Positions 30,089 to 61,729 of a stretch of 64,000 nucleotides of DNA are shown here, piece after piece; the first letter of the stretch is position 1, and the number at the start of each line of letters is the position of its first letter. The DNA is from a virus. Both the position numbers and the translations under genes were made by a program. Under the pieces are notes generated by a model, which had not been told where the DNA came from, made no database searches, and was given only the letters and a program-made list of their open reading frames with translations. The stretch lies in IMG/VR virus record IMGVR_UViG_3300034683_000333; one strand, 5' to 3'.

Positions 30089-30165
30089 TGGACCCCGTGG
30101 CAGGATTCGAACCCGCACCCAACGGATTTAGAGTCCGTCGCTCTAACCAATTGAGCTACACGGGG
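30089..30165 (-). tRNA. Amber suppressor tRNA, anticodon CUA, CCA encoded
   Basis: CCCCGTG TA GCTC AATTGGTTA GAGC G ACGGA CT-CTA-AA TCCGT TGGGT GCGGG TTCGAAT CCTGC CACGGGG T CCA forms a canonical cloverleaf. Confidence 0.96.
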
Positions 30166-30251
30166 TCATTTATCTATATATCAATTTTATGTTGAACCTC
30201 TCCCACTTACGCTTCGCTAAGAAGTGGGAGATTCTTGAGAAGTTTGGTAGA

Positions 30252-31493
30252 TTACACTACCCTTATTCTCAAAGGGTGGTTCAAACACCCATTATCCCTC
30301 GCAACTTGTATTGCTCTGGGAATGCCTTTGATATATTTTCTTAATATATTCAATGCCCCATTTACGTCAGCATTAATTAACATACCATTGTTTGTTTTAA
30401 AAAGACCTCTCGTTATTCTTCTTGACTTATTGTAATTAGCTTTATTTATTTCTTCTAAATCTATTGCACTACACCCACTTGTATAAGATTCATTAATCAT
30501 TACTACCTTTAACCCTACCAACTCTGCCTTATATTTTATTTTATTGACTAATTCTTGTTGTGGTATTTGCACAAAACTCTTAGCGAAATTCTCTTGTTTA
30601 ATTCCTCTAATATCACCTATAACTATTGTATTACAATTCATTGTAAGTGCTAATTCTACTATTTTTTTACTTATTTTGTGTAATTTATCTTTAATATAAT
30701 CATTTCTTTTCTTTTGTAATTTTATTATTTTCTTTGTTCTTTTAAAATTTTTGCTATCATTACATTGTTTCATAGCAATAGAAGTTAATCTTGCTATTTC
30801 TTTATTGTAATAAGCATTTTTACTTTTTAAATGCTTACCACTAAAAATAATACATTGTTCATTATCTTTAAATACACAAGTTGCAAGATTATCTAATCCT
30901 AAATCAATTGCCATTACATTATCACCAGTTACTTTATTTATAATTTCATTTTCCCATATTATTAGTAAATACCATCTTTTAGAAGAATTATTCCATTGTA
31001 ATTTAATTTGATTAATCCTCGATAAATTCACAGGTATTTTGACATTCTTCATGTCAAAATTTAAACTTTGAACCTGAAACTTATCTTGTATTGCCTTTGA
31101 TAATGATAGCTTTAATATACCATTTTTATACCTTATCCCTGCTGTTGTAAATATTATCTCGTTCTTTTTATTATTTGTATTCTTAAACTTTGGTGGTTTA
31201 GGCAATCCTAAATATTTATTTGGATTTTTCTTATAATCTTTTATTGAAGCAAAATAAGATTTCCAATCCTGTTCTAACATCTTCAAACACCATTGATAAG
31301 TGTGCGAATGTAGAAATTGTGTATGATAATTTTGCTTATATAACTTTTCAGTTTCATAATAGTTTTTAAAACCATTTTCTCTATTTTCATAGTTTGCTAT
31401 GTTATATAGCTTTGTTGTATGATATGATAATTCTTCTATAATATTTTGTTGTAATTGATTTAATTTAGGATAGTATTTAAAACTTACTTTCAT
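30252..31493 (-). CDS. tnpB: TnpB nuclease (clade lacking the Zn finger)
   Basis: AIDLGLDNL, INESYTS and INADVNGALNI. Confidence 0.9.
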   Translation of the reverse strand: MKVSFKYYPKLNQLQQNIIEELSYHTTKLYNIANYENRENGFKNYYETEKLYKQNYHTQFLHSHTYQWCLKMLEQDWKSYFASIKDYKKNPNKYLGLPKPPKFKNTNNKKNEIIFTTAGIRYKNGILKLSLSKAIQDKFQVQSLNFDMKNVKIPVNLSRINQIKLQWNNSSKRWYLLIIWENEIINKVTGDNVMAIDLGLDNLATCVFKDNEQCIIFSGKHLKSKNAYYNKEIARLTSIAMKQCNDSKNFKRTKKIIKLQKKRNDYIKDKLHKISKKIVELALTMNCNTIVIGDIRGIKQENFAKSFVQIPQQELVNKIKYKAELVGLKVVMINESYTSGCSAIDLEEINKANYNKSRRITRGLFKTNNGMLINADVNGALNILRKYIKGIPRAIQVARDNGCLNHPLRIRVV

Positions 31494-31515
31494 ATTTTCA
31501 CCTCCTTTTAGTTTT

Positions 31516-31566
31516 ATTATATCATAATGTTATCACCTTGTCAACTATGTTTTTTTATGATATAAT
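31516..31566. promoter_or_regulatory. Overlapping divergent sigma70 promoters of the IS
   Basis: Minus strand TTGACA-17-TATAAT (31544-31516). Plus strand TTGTCA-17-TATAAT (31538-31566). Confidence 0.7.
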
Positions 31567-31584
31567 ATATTTGGGGGTGATAAT

Positions 31585-32822: not shown

Positions 32823-32828
32823 TACTCA

Positions 32829-33398: not shown

Positions 33399-33421
33399 TT
33401 CATTCTCCTTTGTTTTAAATT

Positions 33422-34381
33422 TTACTTATGTGTATATTTTTTCGAAATGTATTCAAAAACTTTTGAGAACTCATCGATAAAATTAAAATTGAAATGCTCA
33501 TAAAACGGAAAGCAAAGCACGTTAAATTTCTTCGCAAACTTGTTAACGATTTCCTCCACGTCAATCCGTATTCCGATTTTTCTCAACTTACCTAAATATA
33601 GTGTTGGAGAAACAATTTCTGGTACGGTAATATCACGTATCAACTTTGCATAAAATTCTGCATCCGAATCACGCTTGGCACGTCGTAACTTAATACTAGG
33701 AAACGAACCAAACTTGTTTATAACTTGTTCACACACCTTACGAAGTTCATCATTATTTTCAATATCAATCGGAGATAATGTAATCGGAACATGAAGTCCT
33801 TTTGAGAAAGTCTGACCAAAAAAATCTCCAAAAAGAGTATTATAAATCAACATCCCACGTGTGTGGGCACCGATCGACTTCAATTCGGCAAAGTTTTTAG
33901 GTGGATTTATTGGATTTCCTAGATAAGAAAAATCGTATTCTTTAACGGCGGATTCAATTTTGTTAATGATATCCCACAACACATCCCGGAGATTAAAATT
34001 TTCGGCATCTCCCTGAATGTAACGGGTGATCTCATCCACGAGATCCACCACGTACTGCTGTGCCGCACGACGACCCTCGACGCCACGCACTTCCACGTCC
34101 TTTTTTCCCGTCACCGGATCAACCGTACAAGCAATGTATCGCTTGATTTTATACGCAACCATGCGACTTACAACAAATTCGTTTTTAAGTCTCATCCTAA
34201 CGAAATCGGTTCGATTCATATTGTGACGATCCATAAAATTAAGCATTTCTTTATTTAGATCGTCCTCGATTTCTTTGATGAGTCCGGTGTCGTTTCCAGG
34301 AAGTCGAATAAACAGACTATCCGTATCAATGATCTTGACGACATCCGTATCTTCAGCATATCGCACAATGTCACTTAACAT
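33422..34381 (-). CDS. Family B DNA polymerase, C-terminal subunit (motif C and thumb)
   Basis: IIDTDSLFI, LKNE, KRY and VRGVE. Confidence 0.8.
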   Translation of the reverse strand: MLSDIVRYAEDTDVVKIIDTDSLFIRLPGNDTGLIKEIEDDLNKEMLNFMDRHNMNRTDFVRMRLKNEFVVSRMVAYKIKRYIACTVDPVTGKKDVEVRGVEGRRAAQQYVVDLVDEITRYIQGDAENFNLRDVLWDIINKIESAVKEYDFSYLGNPINPPKNFAELKSIGAHTRGMLIYNTLFGDFFGQTFSKGLHVPITLSPIDIENNDELRKVCEQVINKFGSFPSIKLRRAKRDSDAEFYAKLIRDITVPEIVSPTLYLGKLRKIGIRIDVEEIVNKFAKKFNVLCFPFYEHFNFNFIDEFSKVFEYISKKYTHK

Positions 34382-34758
34382 TTCTTATTTAACACCTTTT
34401 TCAAAGGTTCCAAACTAATGTTAAAACTATGGTCAAAAGTGACTTTCCAGTCATTTTCTTCCATAACTTTTCCAATAATCTATGGAAAATCACATACTTC
34501 AATACGAGCATTGCTGTTCATACTCACATCAAAGGCAATCTCGACGCTTCCATTAAGCCAATCATAAAACAACAGCCTTACGTTGTCAACAAGAAATGTA
34601 TTATCTGCATCCGGGGAAGAGATTTCGCAAAATCCATTGTACATCAAAGCTCCTGAAATATACATTCGTCTCATATCATCCAGTACATCTTCATCAAACT
34701 CAGTTAGATCTATACAAAAAGAAACAATTGCAAAAACCACATCTGTTTGTTCAACCAT
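34375..34758 (-). CDS. Hypothetical protein (1 TAG)
   Basis: Readthrough of TAG 34480 ends at a TAA that overlaps the next ATG. Confidence 0.7.
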
Positions 34759-34772
34759 TGTGCTACCTCCAT

Positions 34773-35699
34773 TTAAACAAAAATCTCTCGATAAAAATAG
34801 CTATACAAATCTTCATATATCATCAATGTATTATTCGTTTCATTAACCTCTTCGTAGTACGTCAAATCATTTAATTCATGTACTGTTTCATAAAACAAAG
34901 ATAGAAATAAATAACTATTAAGCATTGTAACATATGTATCAATACGCTTTGTTGACACTTTTTTGACTTTTTTGTTCATGAAATGTTTTATTTTAAAAAA
35001 TTTATTCATGTCGTAATAAACGTCAAAAAATTTAGCGGTAATGTTACCAGAAAAAGGGACAACCTCCTTAGAAATCAAATCAATGTACTTTTTGTCGATC
35101 CAATTCTTTTCGTTATTTAACTTATGAATAACGAATCCTCCTGATAAATACTTGCTAACAAGATATTTCAACATATCTGAGAAAGTGACAAAAAAGTGTC
35201 TAAGAACAAAATACAACTCGTCATCAGTAAAGTTGCACAAAAACGAATAGATTGAATCAGAACTTTGAACACGATCATATCCAGGAATGAATCCGTGTTT
35301 CAAAATTTCACGGTAATTACCACAAAGGTCTTTATCAAAATCATCAACAATAAATTTGTAAGTCAGTTTGATTGGCTGAATTTCATCACCATCGCCGAGA
35401 ATAACATCACGCAATGTAAATCCAAGGTGGACATGATTCTGCTTATTCCATCGCATCTACAAATCGTACAATACAGTGTCGATATAATACCAATAATCTT
35501 CTTCATTTATTTTGAGATCTTGCTTAATGGATTGAATACTTTTCTTCTTGGAATTGGGATCATACATAAAATCAAACACCGTGGAATCCAAGATGTGTTT
35601 GCTTTTTGTGGGGTTATCACCCGTTTCAATCTCCCCGCCAAATTCACCAAATACGACATTATTGATGTAATACTCCTGACGATCTGCACGATTTCCCAT
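34773..35699 (-). CDS. 308-aa hypothetical protein (1 TAG)
   Basis: TAG 35457 is directly followed in frame by ORF 34773..35456. Confidence 0.72.
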
Positions 35700-35739: not shown

Positions 35740-37902
35740 TTACCAACCATTCTTCTGAAAAACCTCGTTGATGTACTTGTTGGCGTACAAAATCTCCATA
35801 CGCCCCGTTGACGTGACACACGAAACAAGCAGTCGATTAAACAAAACTCCAAATGAATATCCAAAATATCCGTAAATCGAATTCGCATAAATTTTATAAA
35901 ACAACTGATAAATATGATACTTTCTTTTTTCTATCGGATCTGTCGCTTCGGCCTTTTTCTTTTTATACTCCGCACGAATTGTCAACAATCGCTCACACAT
36001 CTTTGCAATAAATCCAGGCTTCTTATCGTATATAATCCCTATATTAGCAATTGTGTATTTCCCAGAACGGAAAATACCACGATACACTTTGGAAGCGGAT
36101 ACATTTAAAAAACGATCTTTTACAAAATCATAGACAACGACACGTCGATCATCTCTTGGCTCATCGAAACCATTATAGAGATAATCGATGGTTTCTCGAA
36201 TGGGAGTGATAAACCTGGCCGTCTCAACACTGATGTTAAGACCATACATAATTGTCGGGTACATAGAGAAAAAATCAAGGTCGATGAGTTTTTCGGAAAC
36301 ACCAATAAAACTCTTATTGTAAGCACCACCATAAGAACGAATTGAATGGATGTTGGGGGCGATCACTTTACGCACCCAATCCCATTCATCCTCACCTTCA
36401 CTAAGTCGATTGTGACAAGATGTGGTCACCTGGTGAGCATCCAGGAACTTTTTCCGTTGATCCTCCTTGATCTTCCCACGTCGAATCTGACCAAGCAAAG
36501 TCTGAATGCTATATACCTTCGTATCACTTGAATCATCATCGGAATCATCGTTGTCACTGTTTGTATTATCTTCAGAAACATCATTTTCATCAAGAGATGT
36601 GATATGATTTTTCAAGAAATTGACAATATTCTTATAGAAATATATCTTCAAATCTTTCTTCTCCAAACCATAAAAATCTGCATTAACAGCCTTATATACT
36701 TCATTGAAATAATAGTTATAATAGTTTGTAAACTTTGAAGCAATAAACACAATACCATTAGCTTTACCAAATTTCATAAAATATGGTTCAAGTATGTTCT
36801 TTACATTAAAAACATGCAATACGGCACCATTCTTATGAAACTCAAACATAACATCAATAAGATTAAGATTTTGATCCATCAAATAAATAAGAAAACAGTC
36901 AACGATATTATATGCAATATCAAGAAATGTATCGCTTTCAATTTTATTTACACCAAGTACAGCATTTGCAATATAATCAAGCTTCATACTTGGCATATTT
37001 TTCGATACAATAAACTTATAAAGATTCATGTAATCAATTGAAAACCCATGTGAAAATACATAACACTTTTCAAATCCATCAAACGTTGTATAATATTCAA
37101 TTTTAATACTATTCTTTTCACACCTATTGATAAGATATTGAAGGTCAAAGTTATTAACATTCCATCCAGTAACAATCGCAAATTGCCGCAAACACTTTAA
37201 AATATCAACCAACATCGAACTTTCTTCATCGTAAACATTATAAACAATCCGAAGATCTTCAAAGTCACTGGAATTCACACGACCAGAAACGTGATTCTTA
37301 ATTTTTTCCATAATCTCGTCATGAGATGTGAACTCCACCCGATCACGGAGATAAAACACATTTGCCGTCTTCGTCTCGCAATCGAAGATTGTTGCCAAAT
37401 CGATGGGATATTTTGCCTTCCCGGGATCAGGAAACGAACCGTCATCGGGAAACATCTCGATATCGAACACACACACCCGTACATCATTTCGATCGGCAAG
37501 CGTCACGGGAAGTGTCTTGATGTGGTATTCTGAACGAAACGTATTGTAGGTAAGATACCGAGTGGGATGAAATTCTGTATTGGCAACGGCAGAATATGAT
37601 TTGACATCGCCAATGGTGGAAAGGTGCATCGGATGGACTTCGATTTTTTCACATCGCTTTGCATACTGAAGATACAAAGCTTGAAATTTGTTGCTCTCTG
37701 TTTTCAGATTATCAATGCTATACCTATACACCGGGACCTTAATAGAAACCCGCTTTGAAACAACATGCTTCGTTTCCTTATTTACGAAATGCAAAACACA
37801 TTGTTTTCCAACATAATAAGCATTTAGAAGAACATACCCCTTCTCTTCCCCACGCTTAATCAAATCCAAAATATCAGACAAGCTCATTTCTTGTTGCATC
37901 AA
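35740..37902 (-). CDS. Family B DNA polymerase, N-terminal subunit (3'-5' exonuclease plus motifs A and B)
   Basis: VFDIEM, TGWNVNNFDLQY, MKLDYIA, YNIVD, DLDFFSMYP and KIYANSIYG. It lacks motif C and ends on TAA. Confidence 0.9.
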   Translation of the reverse strand: MMQQEMSLSDILDLIKRGEEKGYVLLNAYYVGKQCVLHFVNKETKHVVSKRVSIKVPVYRYSIDNLKTESNKFQALYLQYAKRCEKIEVHPMHLSTIGDVKSYSAVANTEFHPTRYLTYNTFRSEYHIKTLPVTLADRNDVRVCVFDIEMFPDDGSFPDPGKAKYPIDLATIFDCETKTANVFYLRDRVEFTSHDEIMEKIKNHVSGRVNSSDFEDLRIVYNVYDEESSMLVDILKCLRQFAIVTGWNVNNFDLQYLINRCEKNSIKIEYYTTFDGFEKCYVFSHGFSIDYMNLYKFIVSKNMPSMKLDYIANAVLGVNKIESDTFLDIAYNIVDCFLIYLMDQNLNLIDVMFEFHKNGAVLHVFNVKNILEPYFMKFGKANGIVFIASKFTNYYNYYFNEVYKAVNADFYGLEKKDLKIYFYKNIVNFLKNHITSLDENDVSEDNTNSDNDDSDDDSSDTKVYSIQTLLGQIRRGKIKEDQRKKFLDAHQVTTSCHNRLSEGEDEWDWVRKVIAPNIHSIRSYGGAYNKSFIGVSEKLIDLDFFSMYPTIMYGLNISVETARFITPIRETIDYLYNGFDEPRDDRRVVVYDFVKDRFLNVSASKVYRGIFRSGKYTIANIGIIYDKKPGFIAKMCERLLTIRAEYKKKKAEATDPIEKRKYHIYQLFYKIYANSIYGYFGYSFGVLFNRLLVSCVTSTGRMEILYANKYINEVFQKNGW

Positions 37903-40735: not shown

Positions 40736-41065
40736 TCAATTGGATTCAGCAAGTACAAGACAATTTTCATCAACGTAATCACAGCAATACCATTTTCCAT
40801 CCAAAAGAATAATTTGTGGGATATATTGAGATCCCTTCGCAACGCAATTTACCTGCTTGCAATCTTTATCCCAATTACACCTAAACTCATCTGTTTCAAA
40901 TATATGACTCTCAAGTAGTGCTATCTGACGCTTACGAACCAAACTCGAATTACATCTTTTACACGTCACTGAATCACCCCCTAACACCGTTTCTACGTCC
41001 AATTTTGTTAATGAACGACATCTAACACACTAAAAGTTATCAAGATAAGCTTTATCTTTTTTCAT
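40736..41065 (-). CDS. Cys-rich Zn-binding protein (1 TAG)
   Basis: ATG 41065 forms an ATGA overlap. NF*CVRC and CKRC motifs. Confidence 0.7.
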
Positions 41066-42111
41066 CTCAAAACCTCACACTCGATTGTATCAATAAGTTT
41101 ACCATATCTTTTAATTGAGTCAAGGGAAGGCATATTCGATTGCGTTTTTACCTTCAACCAACCTAAATATGACAATATTTTTAAAACATTTAAAAACTCA
41201 TCGGAATTGCTACAAAACTCAAACTTGTATGCGCCACCCATAAATGCATACGATGATAGGATCACATCCCCCGCACCGACAACCGTTTGTCCCAGCGATT
41301 CGACATAATGGGGAACACCAACACAAAAACCGTGTCCGTGCGTAGAATATCCATACAACCCCCTCGACCCATTTGTAACAATAATGGAATCCAAATGCAA
41401 TATTAACGAAAGATATTTCATTCGGTTATAGATTTTACTGTCATTAACAGAATACATTTTACATAGTTTCGTAAATTCTTTCATGTTACACGTCAAATGG
41501 TTACACCACTCAATATATCTACGTATCACACTTGGACGACAATTTACAACAACGCTATCGTAACATCCAGTTAGATCCGTTTTTATTCTGCTGATAAAAT
41601 AATCAGATATGAATCCCTTTGCATAATCTGGAATAACAAGCACATTATAATACGATCTACTCATATTTTGTTGCATCATGGTCAACAATTCATCGTACAA
41701 ATAATCAGGATACCCATTAAACTCTGAAAAACATTTATCATAATCAATTCGTGTAATGTATCTTTTCGTATCTTGTTCAATAAAACGATCTTTTACTGGA
41801 ATGCTTTGTTTTTCTATAAAATCCGCAATAATAGCATTAAGTGTAAATTGTTTTGGAACACCATTAATTAAACTTGAATCATTTTTTGTCAATAATGAAT
41901 AAAAATCAACTCGATTGGGGCAAAAAGTACCTAAAATATTCGCAACATTTGTTGATCCACCATATCTTGTTTCCATAGAACAAACATCAACAATTTGATT
42001 ACTTGGCAATTCCAAATTGTCTCGAAAAACAATGCAGTCAAAAAATCGGTCTAAAATCACATCCCCAATCACATGGAACCTAACGTTACTAGGAACAGAC
42101 TTCTAGATCAT
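41062..42111 (-). CDS. PfkB-family sugar kinase (HldE / RfaE kinase-like), TAG at codon 3
   Basis: AGGAGG RBS, then MI*KSV..VIGDVILD, GGSTNVA, PDYAKG, VTNGSRG and VGAGD. Confidence 0.8.
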
Positions 42112-49781: not shown

Positions 49782-52700
49782 ATGTTTTCACAAAACTCAT
49801 CCATGAATCTTGATATCCTATCAAATAAAGACTTTGTAAAAGCATATAATACAATACTCCAGTCTCTCAATCAAGATACGCCAATTTTTTACCAAAATAC
49901 TGACAAGTTCCAAATTACCATCAACCCCCAAGACTTTGACTTACTACAAGTCAACGAAAAACTATCACACGCCATCATACTACCATACGAAGTTAGTATT
50001 GTCAATAAATCTTTTATGAAAACAAAAGTATATCGATTGGTATCACGAAAACTTCCAAATACGATAAACTAGCACACGAACGCACAATTCCCATTCACCG
50101 TTGAAATTGACCAAACCAGGTCCTTTCTATTGTACGTGACTATTGATACACTTGATGATATTGATTGGTTAATCGATAACGATTTGGCATTTGTCGCTTA
50201 TACAGATAACACCACCCTTTACGAAATCGATTTTGCGATAAGAGTGCCTGACATTCGTGGAATTTCTTCATTTAGCCAGTTTGAAAACTACATCGAAGCA
50301 AAAGATTGGTACGAATCCGGTGTAACGGATTTCGACGAAATCATTAACCTTAGTATAGGAATCCATAAACAATCACAAGCAAGCCGCATCCTTAATCAAG
50401 CATTGATTGATTTTACAGATCGCTCATCACAAGAATTCAATTCATTAATTCAGTCCATTTAGAATCCAGAAGACATCTCTGAACTCGAAAAATAGAGAGC
50501 AACCTTCAAACCCCATCTTCCTGGAGATTTCATTTGGGCGCTCCTCACACTTGAAGACAACTATTCACTCAAATCAAAAATGAAGTTTAATATTCAAAGA
50601 ATTTCATATATTTCTGGTATTTTAGAAAACAAAAAAAATTGCGGATATGATGAAGCATCACAAATGTTTGAAAATTAGAAGAATTCAGTTGAAGTCTATA
50701 CCGGAACGGACATAACAGAACAACGACAAAAACTCGATTTACTTACTATGCAGATCAGAATACCTTGGTTCGGCTCTGAATGGTGTATTTTTGACGTTAT
50801 TACGACCATTCTAAATATCAATGGATACCAAACTACTGTAACAGACAACCAAAGTCTAAAGGAATATGTGGGACAACACATTCGATCAAGCGGAATCAGC
50901 AACTTAACACCTTATATAGAAGATGTAAACATAAACTATGATATTAGCTCACAAATTAAGGAAAATACTTATACATTTACAACTTTGGTTCCTACTGGTT
51001 ATGTACCTAAACCTGACAATACAACACAATATGGTTACAAAATCATTCATGCAGATCATTCTATTTTGTTTAGTGATATTCTCGATACAACCGACTTTGA
51101 GATAAGCTTTATATATCATCGCCCAGTAAACATAACAAGTAGGAATTTTATTTTTCATGATTTCAAAGATTCTTTTATTCAGAAAATGTTAAGTTATGAT
51201 TGGACATCTTATTTTGGTGGAAGCATCGACCCAAATATTCCCATTAACCTACTATCGACAGACTACACGATTGAACTCTAGAAAACCAATGAAAATGGTG
51301 ACTTCACCTACGACAACACACAATGGGTGGTCAATAAAGTTACAACACTTCATCTTTCTGATGAAATTGTTGAATCTTTTAGAATAACGAACTTTGAAAT
51401 TCTTGACGATGGAAGTGGTGACATCCTTCTAACACAAACAAATAATGTAACCGACATCGTTGCAATCCACAAAATTGACGTATTCAATGAAGGAAACACA
51501 TATTTGCAACTTACTGAAGCGAAATGGTTTTTGCCTACAATATACCCATATCAAGAACAATTCAAAACAGCATTTCCATCATTCTTCGTTGGCCTCGACA
51601 CCATAACAAACAACAAAGAATTTTATCAATCCATGATTAAACGAATCGACATTGTTTCAACTGGAACACTAACTCCTGGTGAAACGGGTTCAATTTTCGT
51701 TGTTGTCAGACTGAATAGAAACATATTAAGTCATTACCTATCACAATTTATTGAAATACCATATGCAATCAAGCTAACATTCAATGAAGATCTTCATTAT
51801 TACATCACGTGGAGCACAAATGGCATTATTTCAAAATACCTCGACTGGAAAGAAGGAAAACAAAAGTATCATCCCAAGAACATTATGTGGCAGTAGCCAT
51901 TTTCCAATGAAATTCATAACGGTGATTTGCCACTGGCAATTCCAGATGATGATGTATATAAATACTTTCCACCTAATTTTAATTACTAGTTTTCCACCTA
52001 CCACGAAGAATCAAGCGACCCAGTGACATATCCCAACGACTTTGTAAAAACACTGGCACGGATGAGCGAAGATCCTTCTACGAATCTACCAGCGCCCATC
52101 GTCAAACCTGGACAATACGGCATCGTCGCATACCCGATGATTCTTCCTATTCCAGAAGGTGAGACAAACATCGGGAGCATTTCTGATCTCATCACCCGGT
52201 GTCATACCGCACCACTCAACAAAACCACCTATCGAATTCACTGGCTCTATTTCAACGAATTTTTTGATGACATCCTCTCAACATACAAAACGGCAAAAAA
52301 ACTCGGCTTTAGTTGGATTCCAACGTCAGAAAATACACACTACGTAACAAATGGTCTTGACTATACTGAAAATAGAATAATTCCAAATACAGGAAGTATT
52401 CGACCAATCAATTTAGAATAGTTTACCAAAATCAACGCAAAAGTTACATTTATGTTTAATGAAACACTTAAAAATGTATTTGAATACAGCTTCCCACGCA
52501 CCATTTCAACATATGAAACGCTAAGCGATGTAGATAAATTTTTACAAGAACTTAAAGGTGAAAATGAAGAAATAATACCACCAAAAGAAGATAAACCAAA
52601 GAAGTTTTTGGATAAATTCCTTTACAAAGTAAAATTAGGTGAAATTGTAGGAAACAAACCAGGAACTATGATTGTTCAAACCGATTATATGAATCTTTTA

Positions 52701-54395
52701 ACAATTCAGCGACACGACAATTTCACGATCAAAACACACTCAATCGGCCCCGATTCACCAGACACGTATCAAATTTCAATAGTTGATCCGACACTTGGTA
52801 ACGGGGAAATCATTATTCGCTTCTTAGGATCTGATTACACTTTTACTTTCGAATGGGAAAAAATTGATGAACGTTCCATCCTCGAAAACATTGGTAACGT
52901 TGTAATCGATCCAGATTACATCAACCTTAAATACATTCCCATTGACGAAACATATTCTGTTGCCATCTCCATTACAAATCCAAATCCGTTTCCATTGGAT
53001 ATCACGAGCTTACCCATGGCAAATGATTCGATGTTGGTTGTTGAAATGGTTGAATTTCCAGAAAATGAATATCTTAATCTTCTTTATCATCATTGGAAAG
53101 TCCTAAATAAACCTTATAAACTTCAACCCAATGAAACTGTAAAACTTGTTTTACGAATTATTCCACGTCGCATTGGGGTGAACTTTCATACATTATACTT
53201 AAAAATCGGTAATTCAATCCGAACTGTTGACATCGAATTTAACTCTTTTGTAAATAACAAACCATATTTTGTTCTAGATGAAGAAAGTAGAATTGTCGAT
53301 TTTGGAGATGTACCCATCGGGAAAATTGAAGAAAAATCAATTATTATTAAAAATATCGGTGATGTTATTGGAAAAATAAATTCAGTTTACACTTTCGGAA
53401 ATGATGCTCAACATTTCAAGCTTCTCGATCCAAGAACTGGAGAAATTGCAGAACGTTTGTCATTTAATAAGATTGTAAAACCGAAAACATCCCTTCACGT
53501 ACCGGTACGATTCTACAGCCAATCATACGGTCTGAACACGTCGTATGCTCACATCGAAACCAATGAACCGGTTGTTGACCAGTGGCAAATTTTCGATGAT
53601 TCGACCCAGCTATTCAGAAATGCACCAAAGTATCTGTCAACACTGTTACGTGCTCAAGTCGTTTTGGAAGACGACCCAGTTGATCTTGATACCTATATTT
53701 TCCTTGGTTATGTACATCCAACCAGAAGTCGTTTTAGAACATACGAATTAACACTCAATAACAAATCATCCGATAAGATCATTAGCATTTAGAAAATTGA
53801 TAACTACATGAAAAACTATATTAAAATAAAATACAGTCAAGAGCCTTTCTCACAGAAAACAAGCGTTTATATAACACTCAATCCAAGATCATATTCAGAA
53901 AACATATATTTTGATCAACTATTTGTCTGGTATTCCGTTTATGACAAGAAGACGCATAAACGTCGAATCGTATTGAAAAAAATACCCATTTCGTGGCAAG
54001 TTACCTCAGAAAACTATTATGAATTTGACATCAATGCAAGTGAGCTTATTCTTGTCACAAAACCGTTTATCAAAACAATGAAAGTTTTGCATGTCACAAA
54101 CTTTAGCAACGTCGATGCAACAATGGAGATAAGCTTTTTGAACGATTTTAGTGGACTTTACTCTATTGTACCCCATCTTATTGGACCTGTTCTTATACCA
54201 GAAGGAGTTCGATACACTTTCAGAATTCTTTTCGGTGGGGATCAACGATTTCTTGGAAAATATGACACAGGAATAAACATTCTATTCAATATTGGTGAAT
54301 CAACAATATAGAAAACAATTGCATTGAAGGGACTCATTGGAGAAGAAAACATCATTAAAGCGTACAAGCGAAAAAATATCATCATAACAACCTAA
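49782..54395 (+). CDS. 1537-aa protein with ASH / choice-of-anchor-D-like Ig domains (10 TAGs), probably structural
   Basis: Single frame from ATG 49782 to TAA 54393, broken only by TAG. Joins 7 track ORFs. IVDFGDVPIGK..IIIKNIG motif. Confidence 0.88.
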
Positions 54396-54430: not shown

Positions 54431-55618
54431 TTAAACCATCTTGATGATTTTGCCAAATGGTGGCTTAAACCAATTATTTCTTATCGTGAGCATCCAAAGT
54501 ACCGGGAACCTCGGAACCGATTGGGGAAACGTATTGCAATACCCATCGGTATAATAGAGACACACCTTGGGTAAAACACGTTCTCTTTGGAGAAGATTGA
54601 ATCCAGGAACAAAACTCGTTCCACCACCGCCACGATACGTGAGTTCAATTTTATCGTGAGGCTTCACGACGAAATAATCATGAACGGCGAAATCCACCGT
54701 AATAAAATGAATGGTAGCTTCAAATTTCGCCCGAATCTCTTCCAAATCACGGTTGATTTGAGAAATCATATCCCGTGAAATACTACCACTCGTGTCCACA
54801 ATCACGGCAACATCCAGCGCTTCCTTTTGACGAGCCTTCCCAGGAAGGACAATGCCATGAGCACGAAGACGTTTTTTGGTCTTCTTCCACGACGTGGTTT
54901 TAGAAAGGCACGTCGTTAAAAACTGATTCAAGATCTTCCTATAATCCACACTCGGATTGAAAACCTTGTCGAATTCTCGCAAAAAATGACCGGCTCTTGT
55001 TCCAGCCAACGTTCCACCAAGGCTTTGTCGAAGGCTTTCAACGGTAGAACGCCATTCAATTTCCTGTTCGTTTTCATTTTTTTCACCGACAGAATTCCGA
55101 AGTTCTTCTGGAACGGGAAGCGTCCCGGGGGAGTAGAGATCATCGGGAGCACCGCCACCACCCGAACCCGATTCGGCATTGGAACCGGAAGAACCATTTT
55201 GCTCGGCCTTATCTTCTTCCTGCAACAACAATTCGTAAACTTCTTCGGCGCTCATTCCATGAAAACGACTGTCGAACAATGCACCCTTAACAAGCGAATG
55301 ATTGGAAACCAAAATGCCATTCACAACATAATCTGCCGCCGTGTTCCATGTTTCTTTTTCACGGCTACCTATTCTCAGATGATGCAACATCGCACAATGC
55401 ATCACCTCATGGGCAAACACAAACACTTGTTCTGGAACGCTTAATTCATCAAAAAAATCAGGATTGTAGGCCAAAAATTGACCATCCGTTGCCGCCGTCT
55501 TTATTTCACTAGTAGGGAAAATAACAAGCTTATTGAGAAGATTAGCAAAGAAAGGATCTACGAGAACGAATCTTGCCTTAATGTTTCTCAATCGTTCTTG
55601 TTCTTTCTTGTTGATCAT
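54431..55618 (-). CDS. DUF2201-type metallopeptidase-VWA protein
   Basis: AATDG, FAHEVMH, IVDTSGS and GGGGTSF. Confidence 0.88.
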   Translation of the reverse strand: MINKKEQERLRNIKARFVLVDPFFANLLNKLVIFPTSEIKTAATDGQFLAYNPDFFDELSVPEQVFVFAHEVMHCAMLHHLRIGSREKETWNTAADYVVNGILVSNHSLVKGALFDSRFHGMSAEEVYELLLQEEDKAEQNGSSGSNAESGSGGGGAPDDLYSPGTLPVPEELRNSVGEKNENEQEIEWRSTVESLRQSLGGTLAGTRAGHFLREFDKVFNPSVDYRKILNQFLTTCLSKTTSWKKTKKRLRAHGIVLPGKARQKEALDVAVIVDTSGSISRDMISQINRDLEEIRAKFEATIHFITVDFAVHDYFVVKPHDKIELTYRGGGGTSFVPGFNLLQRERVLPKVCLYYTDGYCNTFPQSVPRFPVLWMLTIRNNWFKPPFGKIIKMV

Positions 55619-55647
55619 TTCACCCTCCGTTGCTTGTTTGTAATAAA

Positions 55648-55676
55648 TATATATCACAAAACAAGCAACAAGTCAA
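55648..55676 (-). promoter_or_regulatory. Sigma70-type promoter
   Basis: TTGACT-17-TATATA with a TG extension. Confidence 0.55.
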
Positions 55677-55714
55677 TAAAAAAGGGGATGGTTGTGAACC
55701 ATCCCCGAAGGTTC

Positions 55715-56596
55715 TTAATTCATGTACTTCTTAATTTTTTCGAGAATCTTCGCCGCATCTTCGGCGACCTTCTTCTTGGTGTCGGGATTTTCTTTGATTT
55801 CATCTACATTCACACCACCAAAGACATCCCGAATTTCCGTGGCAAGACGATTAAGCTCGGGATCATCCGACACGTTAAGGGATTCCACAATTTCAACAAT
55901 ATCGTTTGCCGCCTCAAACATGCTCTTGCGAAACCTTTCGGCCTCGGGATCGGTCAAACGATCCTTGATCTTTTTCACCACATTCATCATGCGGATCACA
56001 AGATCCTTGCTGGCCGCCTCAAAACGCTTCTGAAGCAACTGTTCGAGGCGATTCCGCATCCTCTCCACTTCCTCACCACCAAGACTTACTCGAAAATCGG
56101 TGGTGGGAATGGGAAACACATCGATGGAAATTCCGAAATAGGATCGAATTTCGCTCTCGGAAGGATAGTCATTGGGGTTAAAAAGGTGACCCAATTCAAC
56201 CCGGCTCTGCTCCACAAGATCGTTATACTCATCAATAAACTTGTCCACCGCCTTTTCCCACTCGGAACGGGCCTTCTCGATTTTTTCCATGTATCGGAAA
56301 TAATTCTTCGTCGGAAGAAGACGTTCCCCACGATCCCCCCAAGGAAGTGTGTTTTTCCGATGCATATTACGAAGCCTTTGTTCAAGCTTTTTAAGCTCGT
56401 TCAGCCTCTCCTTGGGAACCAGAAACTTCACATAGTTTCCACGGGTCTCCTTCACACCATAGGTCGAGGAAACGGCGTCATTTCCACGAACATCAGTGGT
56501 TTTTCCCACCCAACAGGAAATTGTGAGATCAACCACCACGGCCTTTTCACAAATGTCATTCTTATTATCTTCAATCTTCATGGCGATAGCTTCCAT
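55715..56596 (-). CDS. Conserved phage protein usually found with MoxR / VWA genes
   Basis: LTISCWVG, TLPWGDRGERLLP, LGHLFNPNDYP and DFRV. Confidence 0.8.
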   Translation of the reverse strand: MEAIAMKIEDNKNDICEKAVVVDLTISCWVGKTTDVRGNDAVSSTYGVKETRGNYVKFLVPKERLNELKKLEQRLRNMHRKNTLPWGDRGERLLPTKNYFRYMEKIEKARSEWEKAVDKFIDEYNDLVEQSRVELGHLFNPNDYPSESEIRSYFGISIDVFPIPTTDFRVSLGGEEVERMRNRLEQLLQKRFEAASKDLVIRMMNVVKKIKDRLTDPEAERFRKSMFEAANDIVEIVESLNVSDDPELNRLATEIRDVFGGVNVDEIKENPDTKKKVAEDAAKILEKIKKYMN

Positions 56597-56650
56597 TTCT
56601 TCTCCTCCTATGTTTAATTGTTTAATTCACCAACCCCTTATTGTGATTCT

Positions 56651-56679
56651 TTTATACCAGAATCATTGTTTAATGTCAA
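56651..56679 (-). promoter_or_regulatory. Sigma70-type promoter
   Basis: TTGACA-17-TATAAA. Confidence 0.75.
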
Positions 56680-56730
56680 GTGGAAAATCAATCATTAATC
56701 TTTTGATTTTCCACTTGATCAATCATTGTT

Positions 56731-57777
56731 TTAATTAAGATACTTTGCAAACTTTACAGCCCACAGCGCCATTTCACTCGTTTCAAGAAGGGCTGGCTTT
56801 ACCTCTGCAATCATCCTAATGAATGCGATTTCATATTCATCACCGAAACGTTCAACATACTTCTTGATCTTTCCGATATTCTCACCATTCACAACATTGA
56901 TCAAAGAATTGCAAACAGCATGACGAATATCATGTTCTTCTGGAACTGGAGTTCCTTCAGGATCATTCAAAATATCATCAATATCAGGAAACTTTTCAAA
57001 CATCTTAATAAAATTCAAAAATTCAATACCAACACCGTCACCAACCGTTCCAATAATCAACTCGTCTCGAACAGAACCGGTAAAGGAATAAACAATATCA
57101 CTTACATATTCCCATGTTCTGGGCGTTGCGAACGTAACCGCATCCGAATCGGGATTAAACTGGAAAAGATGGTGCCGTTGCTTGGAAACATAGGCAATCA
57201 CATAGGGATGAATGTTGTTGTTTTCGGCCCACTTGATCCACGATTCCACGTCAACGTCAACGTTGATGTGGATGAACCGATTGGCGAGTGGAGCACTCAA
57301 ATCGTAGGTATACGCACGATCTTCGCTTCTGTTTCCAGCCGCAACCACAACCCAACCATCGGGAAGTCGATAATTATCAATTTTGCGATCCAATGCAAGC
57401 TGAAGCGCAACCTTTTGGATATCGGGTTCGGCGGCGTTCAGCTCATCGAGAAAGAGAATACCACGACCATCGTGGGGAAGAATCGAAGGCTGAAACCACA
57501 CCGTCTTTACAGACGAAACGGGAATGTATTCATCCATGGAATTGAGATTGCGAAGGCGATCCTCTTCCACGACAGCAGGAAACGGAATGCCACGCATGTC
57601 CACCGTATCGTAGTAGATAAGGCGGAAATCAATGAATCCGACACCAAGTTCATCGGCGACCTGCTTGATAAGCGTGCTCTTTCCGATACCAGGAGGCCCC
57701 CACATATACAAAGGACGACGAAATCCGTTTTCAAGCGATTTCTTAATGACCACCTTGATGTCCGAAATCTTCATCAC
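56731..57777 (-). CDS. MoxR / dynein-related AAA+ ATPase
   Basis: GPPGIGKS, LFLDELN, AAGNR and LANRF. Confidence 0.9.
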   Translation of the reverse strand: MMKISDIKVVIKKSLENGFRRPLYMWGPPGIGKSTLIKQVADELGVGFIDFRLIYYDTVDMRGIPFPAVVEEDRLRNLNSMDEYIPVSSVKTVWFQPSILPHDGRGILFLDELNAAEPDIQKVALQLALDRKIDNYRLPDGWVVVAAGNRSEDRAYTYDLSAPLANRFIHINVDVDVESWIKWAENNNIHPYVIAYVSKQRHHLFQFNPDSDAVTFATPRTWEYVSDIVYSFTGSVRDELIIGTVGDGVGIEFLNFIKMFEKFPDIDDILNDPEGTPVPEEHDIRHAVCNSLINVVNGENIGKIKKYVERFGDEYEIAFIRMIAEVKPALLETSEMALWAVKFAKYLN

Positions 57778-57961: not shown

Positions 57962-59470
57962 ATGAAAATAAAAAAGCGAAAGAACAACCCAAAACTAATA
58001 AAAACACCACAATCGGTCATCCGCATAAATGATGGTAAAACTGAAGTTTATCGTCAACATTTTTACAAGTTAGCAAATAAACAAAAAAACATCAATCTTA
58101 ATCGAATAGGATTAAACAAAGACGAACGTTTGATAGTTGACACACTACTTGAACATTCCGATAAGGTATATCTTGTTGGTGGTGCTGTAAGAGATTTATT
58201 TCTCGGCAAAAAACCAAAGGATTTTGATTTAGCAACTGATTTAAAACCAGAAGAAATCATAAAAATTTTTGGTGAAGACAAAGCAAAATTAACGGGAAAT
58301 GTATTTCCAACAGTCCGAGTAAAAATAAATGATTCTGAGATTGAAGTAAGTACATTCAGAAAGGAAATTGGAGAACCAACCGGAGATAGAAAGCAATTTA
58401 CCGTAAAATATGCCACAACAATCCAAGAAGACCTGGATAGAAGAGATCTTTCCATCAACGCCATTGCCATCAATTGCAAAACGGGGGAAATCGTCGATCC
58501 ACACAATGGAATTTCAGATATTGAAAACAAAGTTATTCGATTTGTAGGCGATCCACGTGATCGACTCCGGGAAGATCCTTTGCGGTTCTACCGGGCCATT
58601 CGATTTCGTCTTAAATTGGATGGAAAATATGCACCCGAAACGATTTCGGCTCTTAAAGACCCATCAGTGGTCCAAATGGTAAAGGAAAATGTATCTAAAG
58701 AACGAATCCGAGAAGAGATTTTAAAGTCCATGAGCGCCACACAACGGGCGTCTGGATTTTTCAGGGATTTACATGCGTTCGGTATGTTGGAATACCTGTT
58801 CCCACCACTAGCCAAGTCCGTAAAACACGACGGTGGTCCACACCACGGGGAAGATGTGTTCACCCATGCTATGTTGGTGGGAGACAATTTCACCCCACGA
58901 ATCCCCAACGATCCCAATGAATCTCTGGCAAAACTGGCCGCTTACCTACACGACATTGGGAAACCAAGCACATACGACCCCGAAAACCGCTCCTTCTATA
59001 ATCACGAAAAAATTGGAGTTTCTGTTGCAACTGAAATTCTAAAAAGCTTGAAATTCTCTACTAAAGAGATAGAATATGTATCGAAATTCATTCGCTACCA
59101 CATGAACAAACCGACCACCCCAAAGGGCGCTCGAAAACTGATTCAACAATTCGGTGAAGAAGATTTGCCCAATCTCATCGAGCTTTTTCACGCAGACACA
59201 ATCTCAAACTTGAACAAAACGCCGGAAGAGATTAAATTTAGTAAGGAAAAGATTGAAAATATACGGATTTTAATTGATGAGGTAAATTCAGAAAAAGATA
59301 AATTTTTGAAACCAATAATTACGGGCCACACACTCATAAACGAACTCAAACTTAAACCCGGAAAAATTTTCAAGGAAATTCTCGATTTTGCAAACGAATT
59401 GACCTTGGAAGATCCAAATAGAACCAAAGAGGAAATACTTAACCAAATTAAGAGGAAATTTGATTTATGA
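57962..59470 (+). CDS. cca: Class II CCA-adding tRNA nucleotidyltransferase with an HD domain
   Basis: VGGAVRD..DFD, DLDRRDLSINA, EDPLR, and H..HDIGK. Confidence 0.88.
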   Translation: MKIKKRKNNPKLIKTPQSVIRINDGKTEVYRQHFYKLANKQKNINLNRIGLNKDERLIVDTLLEHSDKVYLVGGAVRDLFLGKKPKDFDLATDLKPEEIIKIFGEDKAKLTGNVFPTVRVKINDSEIEVSTFRKEIGEPTGDRKQFTVKYATTIQEDLDRRDLSINAIAINCKTGEIVDPHNGISDIENKVIRFVGDPRDRLREDPLRFYRAIRFRLKLDGKYAPETISALKDPSVVQMVKENVSKERIREEILKSMSATQRASGFFRDLHAFGMLEYLFPPLAKSVKHDGGPHHGEDVFTHAMLVGDNFTPRIPNDPNESLAKLAAYLHDIGKPSTYDPENRSFYNHEKIGVSVATEILKSLKFSTKEIEYVSKFIRYHMNKPTTPKGARKLIQQFGEEDLPNLIELFHADTISNLNKTPEEIKFSKEKIENIRILIDEVNSEKDKFLKPIITGHTLINELKLKPGKIFKEILDFANELTLEDPNRTKEEILNQIKRKFDL

Positions 59471-59880
59471 AAGATAGCATAAACGAAAAAGCGAATCTTT
59501 TCATCAACATAGTAAAAAAAAGTAACGGTATGCTCCACGCTTGTGTGATACTGATGGATGACGATTTTTCGTTGTTAGATACCTATTCAAACCACAACAT
59601 CAAAGAAGAGGTCCTGAAAAACACACTGAAATCAATGATCTTGACATATTTGCCAGAAAACCTAGCTATTAACATCATTTCATCTACACCGAATATTTAT
59701 GAAATAGTTCCAGAAATAATTCCAACTGAAATCGTAAAAATAAATAATATATGTAACAAGGAAGATTTATTACATTACTACTCGCTTAGTGAAGATTACA
59801 CACTAGCGAAAGACGAGAAAGAAAACTTTGAAAAACTCGTGAATCTTTGCGAAATGACAATAGAGTTCTACAAATCTTAA
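59467..59880 (+). CDS. Hypothetical protein
   Basis: ATGA overlap with cca. Confidence 0.65.
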   Translation: MKDSINEKANLFINIVKKSNGMLHACVILMDDDFSLLDTYSNHNIKEEVLKNTLKSMILTYLPENLAINIISSTPNIYEIVPEIIPTEIVKINNICNKEDLLHYYSLSEDYTLAKDEKENFEKLVNLCEMTIEFYKS

Positions 59881-59893
59881 TTGGAGAGCCAAC

Positions 59894-60385
59894 ATGAAGT
59901 TTAACAAAAACTAGGCAAAAGAACGATTTTACAAATTCAATCACAGCGGTGCGGCAACCGACATAAAACTCACATTATTCGAATGCCGCTCAATGAAAGA
60001 ATTCTGGGAAACTCTCGAAGAAGGCTTCGGTCCAATCCGAGACGACGTTCTTTACGGGAAGGGAAAATTTTTTAGTAAAGAAGAAATTCATAAATTCAAG
60101 GAAGATCGAATTCTTACGGACTACACACGAGAGGTTCACGACATCTTGCGGTTTCTCTCGACACCCGACGTATTTCGAACATTCGAAAAATTATATTTTC
60201 AGGAAACCGACAAACCCGACCTTTTCACTAGAGAAAATAGTCGGAAATTTTATGAGATGGCATGGCGTCCCTTTATCAAAGACCTACATGCTATCGGGAA
60301 TATCGAGAAGAATTGGAAAAAATACCTAACTAACTATGCGAAAAAACTAAATAAAACGAAGGTAAAAGTAAAACAGATCACTTAA
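59894..60385 (+). CDS. Hypothetical protein (TAG at codon 7)
   Basis: GGAGAG RBS with ATG 59894, in frame with the track ORF. Confidence 0.7.
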
Positions 60386-60502
60386 TACGAAAAATTTTCA
60401 CGAAAATCGTCATCTACCTGTTGCAAATAAAGCGAACCTTTTTTATATTAGGGGAAGTACCTTCTTGGAGCTATGTAGTAACACCAATCAACGAAAGGAG
60501 AC

Positions 60503-61729
60503 ATGCGATTGATGGAGAGTTTCACCCCCACCGACTATTCCGTTTCGATGGTTGGCTTTCGTCCAACGTCCAATTTGCACCTTGGGCACTATCTTTCCAT
60601 TATCAAACCAATTTTAGAAAATCAGTTTAAAACAATAATTTTTTCGGCTGAACTACACACCCTTACTTCTTCACAACATCACCCCGGTCGTGCGTTGAAA
60701 GACGCACGAGAAACCACAATCCAATGTATCACGACAATTTCTCGCTATGTCAACCTGGACCCTGAACATGTTGTTTTTATCAGCCAATATGAGATGAAAG
60801 ACAAACACTATGAACTCCATAACATGATTATCAACGCTGGAACCACACCGGCAATTCTATTCAGAAACCCAATTTACGTCAGTGCACTTAAGAATGAATT
60901 CATTGATTACCTAAACGATAAGCAGACATTAAACGAAGAAGAGATAAATTGCATCGTGGATGTTTTCTTTTCTCATTCCGATATCCTGATTGGTGGGCTA
61001 ACGCCCTTGGGAACAAACTGTATCATCAACCAACTCGAAAAATGCAAAATTGATAAAAAGACAATCAATGAAATAATCCATCACGTAACCAAAATCTCTT
61101 ATGGAAATCTGGGACTAGCCCATTATCCTCTTCTCATGGCGGCTGATGTGATCCTCTACGAACCCGACACACTCATTGTCGGTGACGACCAGAAACCCAA
61201 CGTCCAAATAATCCACGAAATCATCGATATGTTGACACATCGATGGAACATTGGCATCAAGCGATTTCGACCCGTTTATTCAGGCGACCGACCCCTTTGT
61301 GGATTCGACGGACGCAAAATGTCGAGTTCTCTAAATAATTATCTTCTACTCGATTGGTTCACGACCGCAAAAGATCTAGTTTACGAATATTACAATAGAT
61401 TTATCACTTATCCGAGACGCCGAACTGAACCTGGAATCTTCCACGAGTGTCCATTAAGCACACACTGGATCGCCTTTGGAAACAAAGACCAGATTGAAGA
61501 AATTCAATCAGCTTGCGAAACAGCAAAAATTGGATGCCTAGATTGTAAACGTAAAATTGCGGAACACATGTTGGTCACATTGAAACCACGATTTAGGGCC
61601 ATACCAAACGTCAAAAGTCTCATCGAAGAAGGAAGTTGGTGGGCCAAAAATCGAATTAAAAATTCGAGTATATTTTCAGATTGGAATTATTCAGAAACCT
61701 TCGATTCGCTAGATATTCTTACCTACTGA
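60503..61729 (+). CDS. trpS: Divergent bacterial-type tryptophanyl-tRNA synthetase
   Basis: GFRPTSNLHLGH (HIGH), AELH, YPLLMAAD, VGDDQ, GRKMSSS (KMSKS) and CETAKIGCLDCK. About 65-aa insertion. No TAG. Confidence 0.9.
   Translation: MRLMESFTPTDYSVSMVGFRPTSNLHLGHYLSIIKPILENQFKTIIFSAELHTLTSSQHHPGRALKDARETTIQCITTISRYVNLDPEHVVFISQYEMKDKHYELHNMIINAGTTPAILFRNPIYVSALKNEFIDYLNDKQTLNEEEINCIVDVFFSHSDILIGGLTPLGTNCIINQLEKCKIDKKTINEIIHHVTKISYGNLGLAHYPLLMAADVILYEPDTLIVGDDQKPNVQIIHEIIDMLTHRWNIGIKRFRPVYSGDRPLCGFDGRKMSSSLNNYLLLDWFTTAKDLVYEYYNRFITYPRRRTEPGIFHECPLSTHWIAFGNKDQIEEIQSACETAKIGCLDCKRKIAEHMLVTLKPRFRAIPNVKSLIEEGSWWAKNRIKNSSIFSDWNYSETFDSLDILTY

Follow-up and report, generated by a model that had tools for sequence, protein, structure and literature searches.

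The stretch of DNA analyzed here, which we call the window, comprises 64,000 nucleotides of the IMG/VR virus record IMGVR_UViG_3300034683_000333 and is the reverse complement of bases 35228–99227 of this single 126,535-bp record. Two of its features are the main subject of this paper: a gene for an amber-reading tRNA with the anticodon CUA, tRNA(CUA), and a gene for a divergent tryptophanyl-tRNA synthetase (TrpRS). Both lie among genes that contain the codon TAG in frame. The explanation we favor, with a probability of about 0.62, is that the late genes of this phage read TAG as tryptophan via the tRNA(CUA), which would be charged by the phage TrpRS. Window coordinates are collected in Table 1, and positions elsewhere in the record are marked as genome positions.

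TAG as a sense codon

Genes were called with a simple gene caller that reads TAG as sense, so that every called gene ends at TAA or TGA by construction. Called in this way, the record carries 134 genes that cover 95% of the genome, and 176 in-frame TAG codons are found in 56 of them; within the window there are 73 such codons in 32 of the 77 called genes. When TAG is read through, open reading frames (ORFs) with up to 10 TAGs appear in the window (Table 1), and outside it the same reading gives ORFs of 2511 amino acids (aa) with 27 TAGs, 1598 aa with 20, 769 aa with 12, 761 aa with 8, and 860 aa with 6. On related contigs, coding cover goes from 61–65% to 96–99% when TAG is read through. Because ORFs of up to 2511 aa hold 10–27 TAGs, and because the coding cover of the relatives rises as it does, TAG is a sense codon in this phage, and this is essentially certain. 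A standard-code caller ends the SLT-domain gene at window positions 62603–63277 at a TAG after 218 aa.

TAG is concentrated in late-type genes, and the early-type genes are compatible with the standard code, which is the distribution by which Borges et al. (10.1101/2021.08.26.457843) recognize recoding. The genes without TAG include those for a family-B DNA polymerase, a RecA-like ATPase, a PD-(D/E)XK nuclease, ribonucleotide reductase, dCMP deaminase, an SNF2 helicase, a CCA-adding enzyme, and the TrpRS itself. The TAG-rich genes are large orphans (0.8–2.5 kaa) with at best Ig-like or Kelch-like matches, and they are probably virion and tail genes, a class that we assign from their size and these matches only. 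TGG and TAG together make up 2.8% of codons in TAG-rich genes versus 1.45% TGG in TAG-free genes, a comparison that does not discriminate. Searches of Pfam and PHROG gave nearly no matches for the TAG-bearing ORFs, and we therefore used alignments of homologues in place of a family-profile (Codetta-style) tally to assign the codon.

The amino acid at TAG

The homologues came from an exhaustive HMMER search of 1.84 billion representatives with the 769-aa, 12-TAG protein as the query, which found 12 proteins. Starting from these and from further look-ups, three diverged relatives were recovered, and every one of them is TAG-recoded: relative A (JGI contigs L005, L006, and L026), relative B (L009, 5.2 kb), and relative C (L010, part of the 87.5-kb contig JAHZTS010000267.1 of an NCBI metagenome-assembled genome, with L011 as a second contig that carries the same TrpRS). 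Relative C has several genes in common with the phage, at 25–49% identity. Relative A is a mosaic that is 99–100% identical to the phage in some genes and 41–69% identical (protein) in TAG-rich tail-like genes; the mosaic region, phage genome 98–126 kb, is outside the window and looks as if a tail module had been swapped between otherwise near-identical phages in one sample series. Searches of IMG/VR, tblastn against INPHARED, and a near-length search with the 2511-aa protein gave no relatives, scans of JGI metagenomes gave nothing or a single 1.4-kb contig, and a tally of paralogues and internal repeats within the genome gave too few pairs.

The tally covers 9553 columns aligned with the three relatives, taken from alignments of at most 95% identity and with columns in which TAG faces TAG set aside. 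A TAG of the phage faces Trp in 29 columns, Tyr in 8, Phe in 5, Leu, Val, and Gly in 3 each, Gln in 2, and other residues once each (n = 65). In the reverse direction, a TAG of a relative faces phage Trp 26 times, Phe 9 times, Tyr 6 times, and Gln once (n = 61). Scored by BLOSUM62 conditional likelihood, Trp comes first both ways, Tyr is behind it by 62.6 and 54.9 natural-log units, Phe is behind by 72.1 and 59.6, and Gln is outside the five best residues. Applied to the sense codons as a control, the procedure gives the right amino acid for 61 of 61, whichever genome is taken as the reference. The first-pass annotation, made from the letters alone, had proposed that TAG encodes Trp, with columns dominated by Gln or Tyr as the outcome that would speak against it; the columns came out dominated by Trp.

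Codon interchange gives the same picture. A TAG in a relative is faced by 14.7% of the aligned phage TGG codons, versus 1.4% of TAT and 0% of TAC, and by 0 of 74 CAG (0%) and 1 of 197 CAA (0.5%). If TAG were a third tyrosine codon, TAY and TAG should interchange most, and they do not, which disfavors a Tyr meaning. A tyrosine code, in which the class Ic synthetase of the window would really be tyrosine-specific, like the phage TyrRS:tRNA-CUA pair (TyrRS, tyrosyl-tRNA synthetase) of PMC12636597, is thus very unlikely: Tyr is the second commonest residue opposite phage TAG but lies 55–63 log units under Trp, and the earlier view of Tyr as the main alternative is rejected on this ground.

Glutamine, the amino acid of the usual phage code 15, would leave the TrpRS unrelated to the recoding, and we give it almost no probability in spite of its precedents. 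In gut phages, the sole recodings seen were TAG to Gln and TGA to Trp (Borges et al.), phAss-1 reads TAG as Gln, an amber derivative of Escherichia coli tRNA-Trp is charged with Gln (PMC9976931), and one TAG of the window does face Gln in L010 (LFL*EFQT versus LLMQEYQT, where the asterisk is TAG). Against these stand the 2 of 65 and 1 of 61 columns with Gln, compared with 29 and 26 with Trp, which is not the pattern of code 15. In addition, CAG and TGG are equally close to TAG by mutation, and CAG never faces it.

Support from beyond relative A comes from relative C, in which three TAGs of the window, in alignments of 25–35% identity that are independent of relative A, face Trp (phage versus L010: SIPF*LKRGF/SLPFWVKNDF, DL*SLF/ILWELF, and GIASK*VD/GTATKWID). 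The first of these contexts had been put forward as motif B of a GNAT acetyltransferase; the 300-aa ORF that contains it has no Pfam match, so the GNAT argument is not a valid basis for the assignment, and yet its TAG still faces Trp in the distant L010 homologue. Six of the seven peptides that had been listed as aromatic contexts are where they were said to be (SIPF*LKRGF at 21237, GIASK*VD at 10414, KGKPYLQGY*V at 10657, NF*CVRC at 41030, CGKF*F at 27724, and LFL*EFQT at 19476), and the seventh, DID*QTL, is absent from the gene calls. Outside the window, an ORF resembling S-adenosylmethionine decarboxylase (AdoMetDC) has TAG at the W of the HTWPE motif of structures 2iii, 1vr7, and 1tlu. Taken together, the alignments make it very likely that TAG is Trp in this phage.

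In the AdoMetDC-like ORF (L004:6108–6542, plus strand; genome 121107–121541), the self-cleavage site that precedes HT(W)PE reads CSCS instead of ES(H), the usual sequence, and the protein may therefore be inactive as a pyruvoyl enzyme.

The amber tRNA, the synthetase, and charging

The window has a single tRNA according to ARAGORN, the tRNA(CUA), which Rfam RF00005 scores at 72.8 bits against a gathering score of 29; the amber tRNA of the first-pass annotation is thereby borne out. Its acceptor stem, CCCCGUG/CACGGGG, has the pairs C1:G72, C2:G71, C3:G70, C4:G69, and G5:C68, with U73 as discriminator, and the tRNA has U8, A9, a variable loop of 5 nt, the anticodon loop CUCUAAA, and an encoded CCA. 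Apart from it, the record has one tRNA, a tRNA-Ile(UAU), genome c14907–14983, outside the window; ARAGORN found no tRNA-Trp(CCA) in the record on which the phage TrpRS could act.

Recognition by bacterial TrpRS depends on G73, the first base pair (A1-U72), and the anticodon C34 C35 A36, to which the Bacillus subtilis enzyme adds G2-C71, G3-C70, and G4-C69; for glutaminyl-tRNA synthetase (GlnRS), the determinants are U35, the discriminator, and base pairs 1-72 and 3-70 (PMC9976931). From the bacterial tRNA-Trp set, the tRNA(CUA) retains only G5:C68, C34, and A36. Nor does it have the U1:A72 and G73 of Gln-type suppressors, with which only U35 agrees; in contrast, an IMG/VR suppressor on contig L027 has just such an end, U1:A72 with G73. 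Because the tRNA(CUA) has U73, C1:G72, and C:G rather than G:C at pairs 2–4, neither host TrpRS nor host GlnRS should charge it well, as far as these identity rules apply to it. The acceptor end thus argues against a Gln code once more, and the record has one class Ic synthetase gene only, with no gene of the GlnRS or glutamyl-tRNA synthetase (GluRS) type.

The enzyme is 408 aa long and is also free of TAG. It matches Pfam tRNA-synt_1b (PF00579) at 96.7 bits against a cut-off of 21.1, and its best NCBIfam matches are trpS models, of which TIGR00233 gives 97.8 bits, under its equivalog cut-off of 176.75. All other trpS models are likewise far under their cut-offs, and TyrRS models give ~27–28 bits. 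By these scores, the enzyme is a relative of TrpRS and not a standard equivalog, in keeping with the divergent TrpRS noticed earlier. All named homologues among 708 sequence matches are TrpRS. Of the structures in the PDB, Thermotoga maritima TrpRS (2g36) matches best, with HLGH and KMSSS aligned to HIGH and KMSKS, and AELHTLT, LMAAD, and GDDQ aligned to ADWHALT, LQAAD, and GEDQ; the His, the Met/Gln-Ala-Ala-Asp, and the Gly-x-Asp-Gln residues presumably line the Trp pocket as in Bacillus stearothermophilus TrpRS. Four Cys align with Cys of 2g36, an enzyme that binds a 4Fe-4S cluster, and D212, D226, and Q227 are invariant across 40 sequences. The AlphaFold2 (AF2) model has a predicted local distance difference test score (pLDDT) of 89.2 and a predicted template modeling score (pTM) of 0.86, and the top ~46 Foldseek matches to it in the PDB are all TrpRS, with template modeling (TM) scores of 0.70–0.82 by target.

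The fold also contains an insertion of ~65 aa, at about residues 120–195, that forms an extra helical bundle inside the catalytic domain and is also present in the TrpRS of relative B (48% identity) and in that of relative C (29% identity). The three phage TrpRS cluster outside 73 cellular TrpRS on very long branches, with a value of 99 in the Shimodaira-Hasegawa-like approximate likelihood ratio test (SH-aLRT), and all three are located on TAG-recoded phage contigs. Compared with 37 cellular TrpRS, the phage enzymes keep the catalytic and pocket positions and all deviate at positions that are 85–100% conserved in the cellular enzymes, namely G29, G81, K123, P222, E232, R235, R239, F241, P252, D300 (to Tyr), and A382. 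Several of the changed basic and acidic residues, along with the insertion, would face the tRNA.

These data bear on the tyrosine code from both sides. The loop CUCUAAA is one base from that of tRNA-Tyr, C1:G72 is a hallmark of archaeal and eukaryal tRNA-Tyr, and the N-terminal ~50 residues of the enzyme match TyrRS weakly (E about 1e-5). However, the TrpRS pocket motif LMAAD is kept, the strong sequence and fold matches are all to TrpRS, and the tRNA does not have the long variable arm of bacterial tRNA-Tyr. They also bear on whether TAG could stand for a tryptophan analogue or another non-standard aromatic residue that looks like Trp in alignments. Comparative data are blind to the difference between Trp and a Trp-like residue, and the enzyme is far under the trpS equivalog cut-off and on a very long branch. 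Against this, the Trp-pocket residues of solved TrpRS structures are kept, TAG and TGG interchange freely between relatives, as synonyms would, and no genes for the biosynthesis of such a residue were noticed, and we regard an analogue as extremely unlikely.

More weight is given to the possibility that TAG is Trp and the suppressor is charged by the host TrpRS, although we still consider this unlikely. The phage enzyme would then be auxiliary and would act mainly on tRNA-Trp(CCA), for example, to boost the supply of Trp-tRNA or to resist host shut-off. Most recoded phages have no synthetase, and charging by the host has been proposed for them (Borges et al., 10.1101/2021.08.26.457843). The body of the phage tRNA shares 78% identity with a tRNA-Trp(CCA) of Aerophobetes whose anticodon arm is almost identical, in a biased sample: a strict tRNA pattern scan of bacterial genomes found nothing, and a loose scan found ten tRNAs of mixed isotypes of which the nearest is tRNA-Trp, a pattern-biased set that gives a hint only. 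Host charging would have to work on a tRNA that has none of G73, A1-U72, G2-C71, G3-C70, G4-C69, and C35 (PMC9976931), and the auxiliary enzyme would have no tRNA-Trp(CCA) of the phage to serve. Moreover, the phage enzyme is altered at residues that cellular TrpRS conserve, and its clade is so far found only in TAG-recoded phages.

We infer instead that the phage TrpRS is the charging enzyme because the Trp pocket is kept, conserved residues elsewhere are changed, the enzyme belongs to an odd clade in TAG-recoded phages, and the tRNA does not have the determinants used by bacterial TrpRS; given that TAG is Trp, these sequence features make charging by the phage enzyme fairly probable. The sequence of events would be as follows. 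Genes for replication and nucleotide metabolism, the CCA-adding enzyme, and the TrpRS contain no TAG and could be made under the standard code of the host. The large late genes are full of TAG and would be completed only once TAG is decoded. The phage tRNA(CUA), carrying Trp, would pair with UAG, so that decoding inserts tryptophan; the phage's own TrpRS would be the likeliest enzyme to charge it. The insertion and the replaced conserved residues would be adaptations to the CUA anticodon and to the non-bacterial acceptor end (C1:G72, U73). The timing of early and late genes in this scheme is putative, as is the way in which competition from RF1 would be handled.

A stronger form of this proposal is that the TrpRS and the tRNA(CUA) are a self-contained natural orthogonal pair that switches the cell from TAG as stop to TAG as Trp and so acts as a timer for the late genes. 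In such a pair, the enzyme would have abandoned the rules of G73, A1-U72, and C35, and the insertion in the CP1 region, with an altered helical domain, would read C1:G72, the C:G pairs, U73, and the CUA anticodon. We put this forward tentatively, at somewhat less than even odds.

Several observations weigh against reading the late genes with a phage-charged Trp tRNA. Relative A, whose code is the same, supplies most columns of the tally, and a single transition turns TAG into TGG; this last objection is countered by CAG, which is likewise one transition from TAG and yet is absent. Conservation is lower at TAG sites than at TGG sites, and in homologues of the 769-aa protein at 27% identity, W is faced by TGG in 7 of 30 cases and by TAG in 0 of 29. 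Over the whole record, the last 15 codons of ORFs contain more TAGs than expected (14 versus 8.0, P = 0.027), with the SLT-domain gene mentioned above as one example. Some TAGs, perhaps those of early genes, may still terminate translation, backed up by a TAA or TGA that follows within a few codons. One late-in-ORF TAG is kept in relative B with conserved residues beyond it, and thus not all late TAGs are stops. On the side of the machinery, charging by the phage enzyme is an indirect conclusion, and long-branch attraction may affect the TrpRS clade. On the contigs of relatives B and C, which are partial, no tRNA(CUA) was seen, so that co-occurrence of tRNA and TrpRS is shown in this phage only. 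CheckV puts the completeness of the record at ~64%, and another synthetase, tRNA, or release factor could be present in the third of the genome that is unseen. Contigs L029–L037, which are 100% identical to the phage, extend one end of the record only, by 8–11 kb, and this added sequence contains no further synthetase, tRNA, or release factor. The identical TrpRS also occurs on a 195-kb contig in a protein database.

Known systems and neighboring genes

The surveyed phages showed only TAG to Gln and TGA to Trp, with TrpRS found only alongside TGA recoding, in Jade phages, and this restriction was explained by the ready acceptance of such suppressors by host GlnRS and TrpRS (Borges et al., 10.1101/2021.08.26.457843). 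Among natural phage pairs, TrpRS:tRNA-UCA (AP1 and HF2), GlnRS:tRNA-CUA, and TyrRS:tRNA-CUA have been described, as has a UAG-to-Ala tRNA, and the report contains no TrpRS:tRNA-CUA pair (PMC12636597). Full-text literature searches, which were non-exhaustive, turned up no description of a phage with TAG to Trp recoding. The case presented here is phage stop-codon recoding with a code-change module, and its TAG-to-Trp variety is not reported for phages in the literature searched. From the module as described by Borges et al., the phage encodes the suppressor tRNA for the recoded stop, and no release-factor domain (PF00472) was found in the ~64% complete record.

The closest systems are the Jade phages (tRNA-UCA, TrpRS, and RF1) and the AP1 and HF2 pairs, which likewise combine a suppressor tRNA with a phage TrpRS to read a stop codon as Trp, and in which the machinery is in the standard code and late or lysis genes are recoded. 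They read TGA, whereas the codon here is TAG, so that U35 replaces C35, a major TrpRS identity base, and the change is not at wobble position 34. Jade phages have RF1, in contrast to the 126 kb seen here, which have no release-factor gene. The discriminator is G73 in AP1 and A73 in HF2, compared with U73 and C1:G72 here, and the phage TrpRS of the window differs from these enzymes in its ~65-aa insertion and its separate long-branch clade. The orthogonality of the AP1 pair in E. coli was shown experimentally (PMC12636597).

Code 15 phages (crAss-like, Lak, and phAss-1; PMC9523058, PMC10607447) resemble this phage in using TAG, a tRNA(CUA), recoded structural or late genes, and early genes that can be read in the standard code, but they insert Gln, whereas here the residue is apparently Trp, the tRNA does not have Gln-type acceptor features, and there is a dedicated synthetase gene. 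Genes for tRNA(CUA) in IMG/VR that share the anticodon arm of the phage tRNA are unrelated to it, and the fragments that carry them contain no TrpRS. The GlnRS:tRNA-CUA and TyrRS:tRNA-CUA pairs of phages (PMC12636597) are likewise natural synthetase and amber-tRNA pairs that differ in the amino acid. NCBI genetic code 32 (Balanophoraceae plastids) also has TAG as Trp, in a reduced plant organelle genome, whereas the phage is a virus in a host that presumably uses the standard code and in which TAG may still end some early genes. E. coli su+7, a tRNA-Trp with the anticodon CUA, has the same loop, CUCUAAA, and a Trp-like body; su+7 is charged with Gln by GlnRS (PMC9976931), whereas the acceptor end of the phage tRNA is rebuilt and the codon that it reads corresponds to Trp.

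A phage in which TAG is Trp would break the surveyed pattern. The anticodon change falls on a major identity base for TrpRS, so that recognition has to be solved in a new way, and the phage appears to carry such a solution as a gene; if the pair is indeed orthogonal, it would represent a third kind of phage stop-codon code. Gene callers limited to codes 11, 4, and 15 would mistranslate such phages, and code 15 would place Gln at 176 sites here. The TrpRS:tRNA-CUA pair, with its non-bacterial acceptor identity, is also a candidate orthogonal pair for amber incorporation of Trp analogues that would complement the UGA-reading AP1 pair (PMC12636597).

The phage comes from samples of the deep subsurface and of oil fields, a habitat that extends recoding beyond gut phages. 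Four sequencing runs of one subsurface-metagenome study contain phage sequence, and a crude-oil metagenome and an oil-field metagenome contain small pieces identical to the phage. Contigs of three sequencing runs gave only small phage-identical pieces, with no informative variants, and there is no RNA run among the runs listed as containing phage sequence.

Table 1. Features of the window, in window coordinates
Feature	Position	Strand	Evidence or remark
Amber-reading tRNA(CUA)	30089–30165	-	ARAGORN; Rfam
Divergent TrpRS-like class I synthetase, 408 aa, no TAG	60503–61729	+	Pfam, NCBIfam, PDB alignment, AF2, Foldseek
Late-type ORF, 1537 aa, 10 in-frame TAGs	49782–54395	+	Ig-like domain, weak match
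ORF, 1498 aa, 10 in-frame TAGs	3782–8278	-	No known family
ORF, 596 aa, 4 TAGs, directly downstream of tRNA(CUA), same strand	28237–30027	-	
ORF, 401 aa, 5 TAGs	18540–19745	-	In L010, one TAG faces Gln and another faces TAG
ORF, 512 aa, 4 TAGs	22664–24202	-	
ORF, 300 aa, TAGs at 21237–21239 and 20862–20864	20790–21692	-	Both TAGs face Trp in L010 homologue
ORF, 258 aa, TAG at 10414	9958–10734	-	TAG faces Trp in L010
CCA-adding enzyme (tRNA nucleotidyltransferase, PolyA_pol and HD), TAG-free	57962–59470	+	Pfam on identical contig L007
Terminator-like hairpin, 15 bp, strong, directly after TrpRS stop codon	61758–61794	+	Consensus scan only

The CCA-adding enzyme gene is upstream of the TrpRS gene on the same strand, with two small ORFs between them, and the two enzymes may belong to one translation module. 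A promoter-like site before the TrpRS gene was not above chance. Divergent from this block and upstream of it, at 54431–57777 on the minus strand, are genes for a DUF2201/VWA-like metallopeptidase and a MoxR-type AAA ATPase.

On the same strand as the tRNA(CUA), and ending 87 nt upstream of it, is a TnpB/IS605 OrfB-type gene (OrfB_IS605 and Cas12f1-like TNB; 30252–31493, minus strand) with a paralogue at 1347–2417. Relative B has a TnpB homologue near its TrpRS gene, and ARAGORN calls a doubtful "tmRNA" over the 3′ end of that homologue.

The family-B DNA polymerase is split into a 720-aa ORF (35740–37902, minus strand), with the exonuclease and the first part of the polymerase, and a 319-aa ORF (33422–34381, minus strand) with the later part. 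Between them are orphan ORFs at 34375–34758 and 34773–35699 with one TAG each, and the arrangement may represent an inserted mobile element or a genuinely split enzyme. Finally, a PfkB-type kinase (41062–42111, minus strand) whose best PDB match is heptose-7-phosphate kinase, a cytidylyltransferase-like protein (44438–44956, minus strand), and a SIS-domain protein (26138–26743, minus strand) suggest a sugar-nucleotide (heptose-like) pathway of the phage.

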